From the NCBI GenBank assembly GCA_964016885.1, contig OZ024754.1:15872001-15936000 (forward strand): 64,000 bases of DNA, in the 5' to 3' direction. The notes under the pieces were generated by a model. The model saw only the letters and a list, made by a program, of their open reading frames with translations. It ran no database searches and had not been told where the DNA came from. Source of the DNA: Eledone cirrhosa (taxonomy: Eukaryota). Both the position numbers and the translations under genes were made by a program. Shown here one piece after another: positions 11,001 through 17,000 of the stretch; positions within the stretch are counted from its first letter, which is position 1, and each line of letters opens with the position of its first letter.

Positions 11001-14000
11001 TGTGCCACACAAAAGACTTATGACAAAACTCTCTGCAATGGGTGTGAAGGATGATCTTTTTAACTGGTTGAAATCCTTCATTCTCAGCTGAAAAGAGGTA
11101 GTCACGGTTCTAGGACAGCATTCCTCACCATATGAGATGTCATCTGGTGTACCACAGGGATCTGTTCTTAGTCCCCTTTTGTTTGTTGCATACATTAATG
11201 ACATAGATGCCAACTTAAAGAATGCCACGGTACTGAAATATGCAGATGACATCAAGCTGTACCTTGAAATCAAAAGGACAGATCCTGAAATCTATAACTC
11301 TTTCCTACAATCAGACCTGGACACAATGCAGCAATGGATCTCAGACTGGCAACTGAAGCTGGCTGTGGACAAGTGTACAACCATGCATATTGGGAGGAAA
11401 AAATCCAGCGTCCACATACTCCCTCCACAACACTGATATCAAGAAATCCTCTTGTGAAAGTGACCTGGGCATTACTGTCAGCAGCAATTTGCGTTGGACA
11501 AAGCACATCTCTAAAATTGTCAAGAAGGCCGAGGGTGTCTTGGCATCACTCAGTAAGACCTTTGTTAGCCGCTCTCCAGCCATCTATTTAAAGCTGTATA
11601 CAGCTATGGTATGACCACACTTGGAATTCGCATCATCAGTCTGGAACCCCCATCTTGCTCAGAACATTGACCTCCTGGAAACTGTTCAGAGACGTGCAAC
11701 AAGCGCATACCCTCCATCAGACACCTACCTACCATACTCTGAGCGCCTTGCTTCCCTGGCATGGATTCATTGAAGCACTGACATCTGGCAATGGACTTGG
11801 TAAACACCCACAAAGTTATTAACCATCTCGCCAACAACAACCCTGAGCACCTTTTTGATCTCCATGTGTCTAACACACGTGGACATGCCTACAGTCAGAA
11901 AACAGCACAGTTCCCATGACTTTCGGAAACATTTTTTTCACGCTAAGAGTTGCTGAAGCATGGAACAAACTACCTGCGTCAGTTGTTAGCTGCCGAGACA
12001 CTGCATCCTTTAAAACCTCCATGCTTCCCGAGATTCGCCAAAACTACACCTGATGTCCCTCTTCCATATATATGCACACATGTGTATCATGACTCATGCT
12101 CTGTTCATTTTCCTGACGTTTGTACATTACAGTATGTACTATACATACACTTTTCATGAGTTGTAGTGCACCTGAGCACTGTACACAATATTTTCATTCA
12201 TTTAAATACTTACTGGTACTAATAAGAGCCAAAGAATAAGGGAATTAACCATTTTATGACCATATTTCTAATTCTTCGTTAATAATTGAAATGGCATATA
12301 TTTACATGCTATTTCAATTATCAACGAAGAATTTCATGGGATTCACTATAATTATTTCTAATGAAATATACTCTACTTCAATTAATTAATGAAGATTTTT
12401 AAAGGATTTACTAAATTTATTATTTCATTACTAAGATAGTAACTTAACACATGGTTTTTATAAAAAATCATATTGGAAGATTTTAATTTCAATAAGAATC
12501 TTTTAAAATGGGTGGTTTTATTTCATAGAACCAGAGCTGGTTTTGGCTGGGTTGAAATAAAAAATGTTAATGAATTTTGAGGGATATATATGGAGGCACA
12601 TGGCTTAGTGGTTAGAGCATTGGCCTTACAATCGAAAGGTTGCGAGTTCAATTCTCAGACCGGGTGATGTGTTGTTTTCTTGAGCAAGACACTTTATTTC
12701 ACATTGCTCCAGTTTACTCAGCTGTAGAAATGAGATGATAGGGACTGGGGTCTCTATCATTCCACTGTAAAGTGGTCGTGGAGGTGCCACGGCAAAAAAG
12801 CACCCAGCACTCACTGTAAATGAGGTTGGTGTTAGGAAGGGCATCCAGCTGTAGAAATCAAGCCAGAATCAGTTCCCATCCCACCCTTACAAGCAGGGAA
12901 AAGCGGACGTAAAATGAAATGAAAATGAAAAAATATTTAAAGTATTGATTATTCCATTATTAAGATAGTAAATTAACACATGTTTCTTATATCAAATTAT
13001 GTTGGATGACTGTAGGTGGTTTTCATTCAAATAACCAGAGCTAGTTCTGATTGGGTTCATATCAAAAGGGTTAATTACTTTAAAAGGCACTTACCTTGTA
13101 GAAATGCAGACCTTGTTTCCGGGTGAGAAGCAACACATTGCAGAAGTGCTAGAGCATTACAGACTCGATTGGATTGATGAGCCTTGCAGAAGGAAATAAG
13201 GAGAAAATTTGATGTCAACATCATTTTATGCCCGTTTCGCATGCTGGCATGAAAGATCAACAAAGCATGAATAACTGAGGGAGAAACTGAGTATAAGAGA
13301 AATCAGAAGTAATGTGCAGGAGAGAGGAGACTGTTGGTATGGACATATGATGAACATGGATGAAAGTGGTGAGAGATGTCCTCAGAAAGTACTGTACTGA
13401 GAAGGCCCACCCAACACGTGACTGTGGAACAACAGATGTAAAATGATGATGATAAGACAGGGCTAGTTTCAAGTAATTGGGTATTGAAAGGGATATTTTG
13501 CTTTAATGTGTGATGCCAATTTAACAATGGATGGATTGCCACACACACATATGTATATATATATATATATATATATATATATATATATATATATATATAT
13601 GTAGATAAATCTACCAAGAGTTTACGGTAGTGTCCAATCCGTATGAAGAACTCAATGTATTCCGGATATCATGGAAAGAAGAGATGTAATGAAAATCCAC
13701 TTTCGGTGAAAGATAAACGGTATACAGAGTCAAGATAAAATATTAAACAAATAATGAATAAACAATTCCTTATATTAAACAAAAAAAGTTCATTATTTAA
13801 CGATCGTTTCTAGGGTATATATGTGTTATAATTGGTATGCATATTCAACAGATCTATGTACAAAATTATACAAAATTATACAAATTATCAAGATTAAATA
13901 TACATACCTAACACATATATACGCCGTCTTCAGAAATAATTTATTTCTGAAGACGGCGTATATATGTGTTAGGTATGTATATTTAATCTTGATAGTTTGT

Positions 14001-17000
14001 ATAATTTTGTATAATTTTGTACATAGATCTGTTGAATATGCATACCAATTATAACACATATATACCCTAGAAACGATCGTTAAATAATGAACTTTTTTTG
14101 TTTAATATAAGGAATTGTTTATTCATTATTTGTTTAATATTTTATATATATATATATATATACAACGGTTTTCAACCTCTCTATGTAAAACAATATATCT
14201 TTCTCAGTTATAAAAACTATCTCTCTTTCTCTATCACCCATCTCTCCCTCTCCACTCTCATCTCCTCCCCTTTTTTTTTCACCCCCCCCCCCCCTAAATA
14301 AAATATTTTTCCCAATATCACACATCAATCTAAAACTACTTCTCATATGTTGATTTAAAACTGCACTATCCACAAGTGTCTTTTAGCCTTCATATCATGT
14401 CCTGTTTTATCTGATGAAAACACAAATATTATTGCATGATGATGTTTGTTTTTGAAATGCGCATAATAAAATACATGGAACTCCTTTAACCATCTTTTGA
14501 TCTTATATATTATATATATATATATATATATATATATATATATATTTAGCGAACTGGTCATAAGGTTATTTACTCTAGTAGATAACACTATATACTAATT
14601 TAATAAGTAAAGGAACACAAGAATATGTAAGGAAAGCAGAAGCAAGATGATGAGATGCAGACAGGAAATAACATATGATAAGTCTTCTCAACAGTATGTG
14701 AAGGTAGTTTTTCTTTATTCGTGTGCTTGTGCGTGTATGTTTACAATGGTTAACTGACATACCTGTGACTTGCTTTGTTAATCCTTGTAAGAAGGATTGG
14801 AATACATCTGAACTGAGCCTTATGGTATAGGTCCTCAGCAGATGTGTTGCAGGCGACCAAGAGAGAGAGAGGCGTCGGAACGCTCCCTTATATACTGGCC
14901 ACGGGGAAGTAACTCCAAATAGTCTGGTTCCCTAGAGAGATGGCGCTAGTCACTACATATATATATATATAGTGATTGTAACATCCAGTTACTGTAGGTT
15001 CACCAGAGTGAGCACTGTGCAGTTTCCAGTAGGTATATTGGTATTGTACTAAGCAGAGTGTAATATTAATAATAATAAAAAGGATGAAGTGTTAAATTTT
15101 CATTACGTTTATTGAGGTGTAATGCACGTTTCGCAATTGATCAGCTCAAGGCTCGATCTGAATCGATCTGGCTCGACTCAGGAATCAAAAGCTCATTGCA
15201 CTTCTGTTATCGTCATTACCCTTATTATTAATTATATATAGCAATATATAATGTTTATGGTTATACTTACAGTTAACTGTGGAGGATTAATTGCAGGATA
15301 AATGTTGATAATTTCTTGAAGAAGGGCTGCTATTGTACCAAATGAGTGCCATAACATTGGAGCAAGGTCTGGAACAACCTCTCGTTTTTTGCTAGAGAGA
15401 AAAAAAAAACAATTTTATACTGTGTTAATGTGGATAGCAATGAACTGAAGACATTGAAAGGTAGAGAGGAATATTCAATCTAGCTGACAACTTTTCTCTT
15501 TTCTTGTGCTGGTACACACTAAAACGTAGTAGTGTTGGTGCCACAATAAAATACACCCAGTACACTCTGTATAGTAGTAGTGCTGGTGCCACAATAAAAT
15601 ACACCCAGTACACTCTGTATAGTAGTAGTGCTGGTGCCACAATAAAATACACCCAGTACACTCTGTATAGTAGTAGTAGTGCTGGTGCCACAATAAAATA
15701 CACCCAGTACACTCTGTATAGTAGTAGTAGTGCTGGTGCCACAATAAAATACACCCAGTACACTCTGTATAGTAGTAGTGCTGTGCCACAATAAAATACA
15801 CCCAGTACACTCTGTATCGTAGTAGTGGTGGTGCCACAATAAAATACACCCAGTACACTCTGTATCGTAGTAGTGGTGGTGCCACAATAAAATACACCCA
15901 GTACACTCTGTATCGTAGTAGTGGTGGTGCCACAATAAAATACACCCAGTACACTCTATATAGTAGTAGTGCTGGTGCCACAATAAAATACACCCAGTAC
16001 ACTGTATAGTAGTAGTGCTGGTGCCACAATAAAATACACCTAGTACACTGTATAGTAGTAGTGTTGGTGCCACAATAAAATACACCCAGTACACTCTGTA
16101 TAGTAGTAGTGTTGCTGCCACAATAAAATACACCTAGTACACTCTGTATAGTAGTAGTGCTGGTGCCACAATAAAATACACCTAGTACACTTTGTATAGT
16201 AGTAGTGTTGCTGCCACAATAAAATACACCTAGTACACTGTATAGTAGTAGTATTGGTCCCACAATAAAATACAACCAGTAAACTCTGTATAGTAGTAGT
16301 GTTGGTGCCACAATAAAATACACCCAGTACACTCTGTATAGTAGTAGTGTTGGTGCCACAATAAAATACACCTAGTACACTGTATAGTAGTAGTATTGGT
16401 CCCACAATAAAATACACCCAGTAAACTCTGTATAGTAGTAGTGTTGGTGTCACAATAAAATACACCCAGTACACTCTGTATAGTAGTAGTGTTGGTGCCA
16501 CAATAAAATACACCTAGTACACTGTATAGTAGTAGTATTGGTCCCACAATAAAATACACCCAGTAAACTCTGTATAGTAGTAGTGTTGGTCCCACAATAA
16601 AATACACCCAGTACACTCTGTATAGTAGTAGTGTTGGTGCCACAATAAAATACACCTAGTATACTGTATAATAGTAGTATTGGTCCCACAATAAAATACA
16701 CCCAGTACACTCTGTATAGTAGTAGTGTTGGTGCCACAATAAAATACACCTAGTACACTCTGTATAGTAGTAGTGTTGCTGCCACAATAAAATACACCTA
16801 GTACACTCTGTATAGTAGTAGTGTTGCTGCCACAATAAAATACACCCAGTACACACTGTATAGTAGTAGTGTTGGTGCCACAATAAAATACACCCAGTAC
16901 ACTCTGTATAGTAGTAGTGTTGGTGCCACAATAAAATACACCCAGTATACTCTGTATAGTAGTAGTGTTGGTGCCACAATAAAATACACCCAGTACACTC

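Follow-up and report, generated by a model that had tools for sequence, protein, structure and literature searches.

Why does an intron of a conserved gene carry a near-perfect palindrome with the parts of a hammerhead ribozyme on both strands? The structure lies in an intron of CNOT9 within a 64,000-nucleotide stretch of the Eledone cirrhosa genome (assembly GCA_964016885.1, contig OZ024754.1, forward-strand positions 15,872,001 to 15,936,000; hereafter the window), and an initial annotation described it as a 411-bp palindrome in which the ribozyme might be silenced by its own mirror image. We find that it is very probably an insertion product, the shortest of the common ones, of a young Penelope-like element from the Hydra clade, likely consisting of two complementary DNAs (cDNAs) joined head to head. 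Inverted copies of pseudo-long terminal repeats (pLTRs) are a known by-product of Penelope-like elements, and the by-product seen here is of that known kind, from a new and unusually built Hydra family. The interest of the structure lies in the statistics of the family's junctions and in the long stem II of its hammerhead, not in the CNOT9 site.

A 546-bp insert with unequal arms

The mirror arms (13735-13939 and 13941-14145, centred on T13940) and their single mismatch (13885/13995) were recovered as first described; the size and the uniqueness given to the structure did not hold. The left arm extends 135 nt past the mirrored part, to 13600, and the whole insert is 546 bp long (13600-14145), with unequal arms of 341 and 205 nt that both come from one end of a repeat; many such stumps exist. 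Its parts, in window coordinates, are as follows, with element positions numbered from the A of TCATT ahead of stem I (+1).

13600..13940, minus strand: long arm, element +1 to +341 (hammerhead, short end and 135-nt tail); sense strand, in the direction of CNOT9
13600..13734, minus strand: 135-nt tail between the two 3' ends, in one arm only
13940, minus strand: A+1, likely transcription start and palindrome centre (TCA+1TT in full-length copies)
13941..14145, plus strand: short inverted arm, element +2 to +206, ending at the family's short end
13554..13599, no strand: (TA)n target, left part
14144..14162, no strand: (TA)n target, right part

The long arm thus reaches +1 at this locus and the short arm +2. 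Over its full length the long arm matches L032:265-605 at 100% identity; this is the pLTR that precedes an intact open reading frame (ORF), and the short arm differs from it once. At the arm mismatch, the sense strand has G where the subfamily's other copies show A (82 in all; G occurs twice, both times from the window locus, which was counted double), which could reflect a mutation, another template or adenosine-to-inosine editing of the template.

The parent element is a Hydra-clade Penelope-like family

Searching the genome with one arm gave 574 candidate matches. Exact patterns matched the window's subfamily 573 times and a more widely shared stretch, just downstream of the predicted ribozyme cut site, 8,746 times; the family has about 9,000 arms in the genome. 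Older subfamilies account for 2,105 matches. As anticipated by the initial annotation, which had tied the palindrome to Penelope-like elements with inverted pLTRs, the search led to a Penelope reverse transcriptase (RT): the same pLTR stands in front of an 813-aa ORF for an RT and a probable endonuclease, the only ORF of the element. In twelve large stretches, units of 6,608 bp (pLTR, this ORF and a long microsatellite-rich 3' part) form partial tandems that are preceded by an inverted copy. Partial tandems of the pLTR, an inverted copy and a tail at one end are as expected of Penelope-like elements with an endonuclease (EN+). The first 450 codons are open in 21 of the 28 copies read, and the family is therefore young. 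Moreover, nearly all of the 96 terminal arms in a 100-arm sample (the first 100 among the matches listed, all on contig C1) end in (TA)n, as in other Hydra elements. The element's 3' non-coding part itself holds ~2.6 kb of (TA)/(TG)-rich microsatellite (L032:3650-6300), which is its own target type.

The protein carries RWR, DKT, CNC-x5-C (CNCRNKTNC), CxxC (CRLC) and CxH (CNH) motifs, in agreement with the definition of the Hydra clade in PMC8557442 (RWK plus DKT, a CxCx5C linker, CxxC plus CxH near the C-terminus, no CCHH). Compared by eye with reference Hydra proteins, it follows Hydra-1_Obim motif by motif, and its invariant Y694, Y707, G709, R718 and H722 align, again by eye only, with the published Hydra endonuclease (GIY-YIG). 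Pfam gave no match for the 813-aa ORF or for nine homologues. The best matches of the predicted structure (mean predicted local distance difference test score, pLDDT, 85.6) are telomerase RTs (TERT, E = 5e-9); an RNase H domain was not evident in the ORF from motif reading or from the predicted structure. The protein has 118 database relatives.

Two other classes of element were considered and rejected. A non-LTR (long terminal repeat) retrozyme would consist of short, ORF-less head-to-tail repeats, whereas the arms here are head to head and the parent unit is 6.6 kb long with an ORF. A miniature inverted-repeat element or other DNA transposon would have a fixed structure with terminal inverted repeats and a transposase as its partner, whereas here the centres vary between copies and the partner encodes an RT.

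Arms end at two fixed 3' sites and often stop at +1/+2

The 3' ends in the 100-arm sample fall at ~+206 (53 arms) or ~+343 (43), with 4 arms continuing into the body. Pairs of opposite arms combine one short and one long end in 19/19 close pairs and in 9/9 large insertions, which identifies the known Penelope "tail", here 135 nt long. The tail agrees with the two internal start sites shown in vitro for the PAc element (PMC11167929).

At the other end, the sampled arms have their start at +1..+9 in 36 cases, within the 140 nt that follow in 13, and farther upstream in 51; the predicted cut (+143) is the start of none. Over the whole genome, the stop lies at +1 in 2,322 arms and at +2 in 434 (2,756/8,934, the remaining 6,178 reading through), the +1 class including centres at which that base could derive from the opposite arm. 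Stem I begins at this +1/+2 stop. On the cDNA side, an additional C comes after +1 in 25/100 arms and after +2 in 5/100 (hand counts of the first 100 listed of each; p = 1e-4), and at some centres both arms carry an extra base. An extra G is established as the mark of a copied cap in LINE-1. An ATTGG box near -60 and AATAAA at -15..-10 are also conserved while their surroundings diverge. A stop this sharp, often with an extra G, therefore points to an RNA start that is capped, and we infer from these junctions that +1 is probably a capped transcription start.

The two arms of one insertion are identical in 13/19 close pairs and 8/9 distant pairs, compared with 9/399 pairs between loci, so both arms likely derive from one RNA or one source locus. 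Half of the centres (8/16) are loop-free perfect palindromes; together with the extra base on both arms, these fit two end-annealed cDNAs better than self-priming (PMC3846280). Some centres hold short re-copied pieces of the first 10-15 nt, which suggests repeated priming or slippage at the RNA 5' end.

Full-length copies do not stop at +1

The pLTR leads into the body of the element at 306 matches. From the first 100 listed, 90 ORF-preceding pLTRs were mapped: 74 of them continue past +1, the other 16 have their end within the pLTR, and a stop at +1..+9 occurs in none. Stops thus occur in 36/83 terminal arms vs 0/74 ORF-preceding copies that reach +1 (p = 1e-12, a value that counts array units as if they were independent events, which they are not, and includes one pLTR of the 90, L244, that may be a chance match). 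Were the template a linear message that begins at +1, full-length copies would be expected to end at that base, and the template of the long copies therefore likely lacks such an end; full-length copying likely proceeds via an endless template, which might be an RNA circle or a jump between repeats.

The same pattern was seen in a second abundant Hydra family, a sister of the first (47% protein identity, ORF frames of ~713 aa; L123-L152). Stem I is reached by 16 of the 29 mapped copies that bear its ORF, and each of these 16 continues past it, whereas among short arms caught by chance, seven at five loci start at stem I and four others read through. The stop in the sister family is TTA+1GT, with no AATAAA within the 70 nt before it. 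Its hammerhead (e.g., L143:1305-1370) has a short stem II with a U.U foot, and in nearly all copies seen the core reads CAGAAGA, with A in place of the usual U4.

Five multi-unit arrays of the main family were compared over 3,300 nt: the 18 within-array pairs differ at 0-7 positions and the 102 between-array pairs at 15-106, although duplication after insertion could also produce the identity within arrays. Single insertions reach ~40 kb, with 2-3 near-identical units per arm (L303-L320; G000 C2:170.42 Mb, C1:420.38 Mb, C2:36.29 Mb, C1:126.84 Mb and C2:262.01 Mb) and a unit length of 6.05-6.9 kb that is mostly array-specific.

A hammerhead with an unusually long stem II

The ribozyme parts pointed out in the initial annotation can all be read in the sequence, including the ~115-nt hairpin that forms stem II.

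13947..13953, plus strand: hammerhead core CUGAAGA (mirror at 13933-13927, minus strand); present in the aligned subfamilies, partly fixed by the search pattern
13954..14069, plus strand: stem II, 116 nt (basal C.A mismatch, G.U, G-C, C.C mismatch, two long helices)
14070..14087, plus strand: GAA, 2-bp stem III with self-complementary AACGAUCGUU, GUU triplet and 3' strand of stem I (GAAAC-GAUC-GUU at 14070-14081, AAAUAA at 14082-14087)
13902..13909, minus strand: candidate splice donor AG/GTATGT at +33/+34, inside stem II; G/GTATGT in nearly all rows across subfamilies

With the core CUGAnGA/GAA/NUH and three stems, the topology is type I as proposed. Stem I, given as 6 bp, is longer: full-length copies give 10 bp, or 7 bp counted from +1. 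Cleavage is predicted after 14081, with its mirror after 13799 (element: after +142). One arm folds at -46.2 kcal/mol (z = -6.6), and 0/200 shuffles were as good. In an alignment of 22 copies, the first 24 columns of which were fixed by the search pattern, 98.7% of 791 cells over the whole structure are paired, and the hammerhead is kept across copies, a conservation whose absence the initial annotation had named as a refuting result (GAAAC...GU in 20-22/22 rows per column, a part that lies outside the search pattern). Older subfamilies have GUA instead of GUU (19/22 rows) and a U.G pair in stem I, and their stem II measures 99-105 nt, within a family range of 99-116 nt. The shared changes in stem II are A-U to G.U swaps at five columns and A-U to G-C at one, where G.U copies are also seen; this favours a structure on the sense strand, although the covariation is thin and comes from relatives. 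Folding energies of stem II clearly favour the sense over the antisense strand in the young subfamily, not in several older copies, and were not used.

The self-complementary stem III loop is predicted to form an intermolecular duplex of -11.8 kcal/mol, and hammerheads with a short palindromic stem III have been described as needing dimers (PMC4209133; PMC6765202). A match to existing hammerhead models, which the initial annotation had looked to as a check, was not obtained: Rfam gave no hammerhead match at the gathering score or at E up to 10, likely due to the long insert, and only non-specific microRNA-hairpin matches. The long stem II appears specific to this family among the families compared here, the sister family having a short one, and represents a hammerhead shape that is missed by Rfam and by short-loop descriptors. 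In the literature, with thin coverage of subscription journals, we found nothing on a Hydra hammerhead with a long stem II or on cap run-off in Penelope-like elements.

Splicing from the AG/GTATGT donor is a conjecture drawn from the motif. Introns in the 5' untranslated region occur in Penelope and Chlamys-3 (PMC8557442 for Chlamys-3). No splice joint was present in contigs from four runs of unknown kind, a result that counts neither for nor against splicing.

The CNOT9 setting

The host intron (15270-13183, 2.1 kb) belongs to CNOT9 on the minus strand, as first annotated, and is bounded by two exons that we take to be those of CNOT9 from matching peptide motifs.

13095..15391, minus strand: CNOT9 exons flanking the insert-bearing intron (15391-15271 and 13182-13095); peptide matches, AG/GT boundaries read

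Read along the CNOT9 strand, the insert begins with the antisense arm, and as a whole it is predicted to fold in the pre-mRNA as a single duplex (-331 kcal/mol). The ribozyme of the sense arm would thereby be masked in a predicted 205-bp duplex, in line with the initial annotation, and the stump would remain inert. The special role suggested for the locus finds no such agreement, the insert being one of many stumps. Nothing suggests selection for a masked ribozyme at CNOT9; the structure is an ordinary by-product, and the "self-silenced ribozyme" is a side effect.

Origin of stumps and arrays

Two cDNAs were likely primed from opposite strands of the (TA)n tract, with synthesis beginning at two set positions on a single, probably capped RNA. 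Both would have run off the 5' end of this RNA before their head-to-head joining, the arms then being separate cDNAs of that RNA. An RNA with one pLTR would probably stay uncut, as its 2-bp stem III needs a partner, and would be copied to the cap to give a stump; an RNA with two pLTRs would lose its +1 end and give rise to seamless multi-unit arrays. The most likely route to that loss, although we would give it a little less than an even chance, is dimeric hammerhead cleavage followed by ligation into a circle. The idea of a circle that arises when the ribozyme cuts and the product is ligated comes from PMC4209133, and circles have been shown for retrozymes (PMC7229834).

A more far-reaching and speculative proposal, which we hold to be possible rather than probable, is that the family records both routes of retrotransposition. 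A capped one-ribozyme RNA would give palindromic stumps, and a two-ribozyme RNA would undergo dimeric cutting, form a 6.6-kb circle and be copied in a rolling manner from both target strands, with stem II and its candidate splice donor deciding whether the RNA becomes a spliced message or a template that keeps the ribozyme. The reason for the presence of hammerheads in Penelope-like elements, and the way in which these elements recover sequence that lies upstream of their start, are left open in the accessible text of PMC8557442, PMC4209133 and PMC11167929. A young family of ~9,000 arms provides a count-based footprint here, in that the stop at a single base, with an additional cap-like G, belongs to short copies and is never seen in full-length ones. 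This footprint speaks against long copies being made from a plain linear message, and leaves a circle or a jump.

Several observations weigh against the mechanism proposed here, in addition to the dependence among array units given above. Start site, cap, cleavage, circle and splicing are all predictions from genomic DNA. Only one pair has changed on both sides, and the pair at the base of stem II, already flagged as non-canonical in the initial annotation, is C.A in 21/21 rows instead of the usual paired base, G-C, or U.U; U.U is found at the stem II foot in many Hydra motifs (PMC8557442) and is tolerated (PMC3088659), whereas C.A was not seen in the accessible parts of these papers. The minimum-energy fold pairs the core (UUUCUG/UAGAAA) and lies 4.5 kcal/mol below the hammerhead fold. 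A pile-up of 5' ends at the cut site had to be rejected: an apparent threefold excess over a small-sample background (168 arms ending in +141..+149) is equalled by a control window, which gives 148 among long arms alone, and ORF-preceding copies are not enriched, with 1/30 cut-window loci preceding an ORF and the 3/16 ends near the cut among ORF-preceding copies ending inside the pLTR being a post hoc count. Moreover, the ribozyme of a Poseidon element is dispensable for insertion in vitro (PMC11167929).

In one alternative, the ribozyme is irrelevant to long copies, and a cDNA that reaches the cap jumps to the 3' pLTR of the same RNA, as in LTR strand transfer, while one-pLTR RNAs cannot jump and yield stumps. 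Such a jump accounts equally well for the 0/74 stops and for identical array units, it calls for no pile-up at the cut site, and it agrees with the continued insertion of PAc ribozyme mutants in vitro (PMC11167929). However, it needs near-100% efficiency from a protein in which no RNase H domain is evident, and leaves the conservation of core, stem I, stem II and palindromic loop across subfamilies unexplained; we regard the jump, as the cause of +1 loss and as a full account of the long copies, as a real but minority possibility. The long copies would also ignore +1 if that base were not a start but a 3'-processing cut behind AATAAA (-15..-10), with stumps copying the downstream fragment and transcripts starting further upstream. 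The subfamilies seen have retained AATAAA, and GU-rich sequence follows it. Nonetheless, the A of CA is part of the ends, which lie at +1 five times as often as at +2 and have an additional G, the spacing of 9 nt is short, TCA+1TT resembles an initiator and is accompanied by the conserved ATTGG box near -60, and the sister family stops without AATAAA in the preceding 70 nt, which makes 3' processing improbable.

The near-constant identity of arms within an insertion would also be expected if the second arm arose by self-priming or fold-back of one strand (possibly from an antisense template), with the endonuclease trimming one end to leave the tail. Self-priming was argued for Penelope by Arkhipova 2013 (PMC3846280), and the tail was ascribed to endonuclease resolution by Craig 2021 (PMC8557442). 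We consider it unlikely here, given that the loop-free centres and the extra base on both arms fit separate run-offs, that the extra G sits at the 5' end of the sense strand, and that the tail is defined in vitro by two internal RT start sites (PMC11167929). A role selected in the host, as a self-silenced ribozyme or as double-stranded RNA regulating CNOT9, would be served by the 205-bp duplex expected in the pre-mRNA, but the insert is identical to active copies, is the commonest by-product structure and has no sign of age or locus-specific conservation, and such a role is very improbable. Least credible is a fold-back assembly artefact, which the initial annotation had named as a possible undoing of its reading and which a near-perfect palindrome in an AT-rich region might bring to mind: the arm ends are unequal and defined by the element, the flanks are unmirrored, one mismatch separates the arms, and the same +1 centre recurs at many loci with centres otherwise varied. 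Weaker evidence comes from 14 letters of the same junction in one contig from a second study.

Comparison with known systems

With the Hydra clade (Craig et al. 2021, PMC8557442; Hydra-1_Obim, Penelope-13_HM) the family shares a single ORF with RT and, probably, a C-terminal endonuclease, and the RWK/RWR, DKT, CxCx5C, CxxC and CxH motifs. The (TA)n target and an attached inverted, 5'-truncated copy are likewise common to both, as is a type I hammerhead with a mismatch or extra base at the stem II foot and, in many members, U at the cut site. It differs in its unit (6.6 kb vs under about 3 kb), in its stem II (99-116 nt vs a loop 2 of 3-10 nt in published Hydra motifs) and in its tail (135 nt vs 30-40), with ~9,000 arms here. 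Partial tandems, an inverted pLTR, a tail on one end, a start within the pLTR and palindromes at inverted junctions are found also in the Penelopes of Drosophila virilis and Adineta vaga (PMC2377424, PMC3846280, PMC4209133). The likely start here is the first base of stem I, whereas in Penelope an intron lies between start and helix I.

PAc (Poseidon, Anolis; Frangieh et al. 2024, PMC11167929) belongs to a different clade and is similar in that both target strands are nicked and extended, two internal RT starts define the tail, targets are AT-rich and no ends occur at the ribozyme cut site; the accessible text of that paper describes neither capped-end run-off nor long copies that read through. 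The hammerhead of metazoan non-LTR retrozymes (PMC7229834; bioRxiv 2026.07.22.740005) is likewise of type I with a palindromic stem III, and dimeric cleavage with a circular RNA as template is proposed for them as it is here; they are short head-to-tail non-coding repeats, whereas the stump described here is head to head and comes from an autonomous element. In schistosomes, hammerheads are on record as pairs on opposite strands, 100-700 bp apart. Beyond what is known are the 99-116-nt stem II, the +1/+2 stops, and the read-through of all mapped ORF-preceding copies that reach +1, repeated in the sister family.

Other repeats in the window

A tail fragment of the sister family lies between (TA)n tracts at 63823-63914. 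The CNOT9 region also contains an array with a 48-bp period (15522-18842), and a tandem array of ~97 copies of a 40-bp unit occupies 43036-47000. A dispersed 319-nt repeat occurs as an inverted pair with 95% identity (12584-12902 and 37063-37381).

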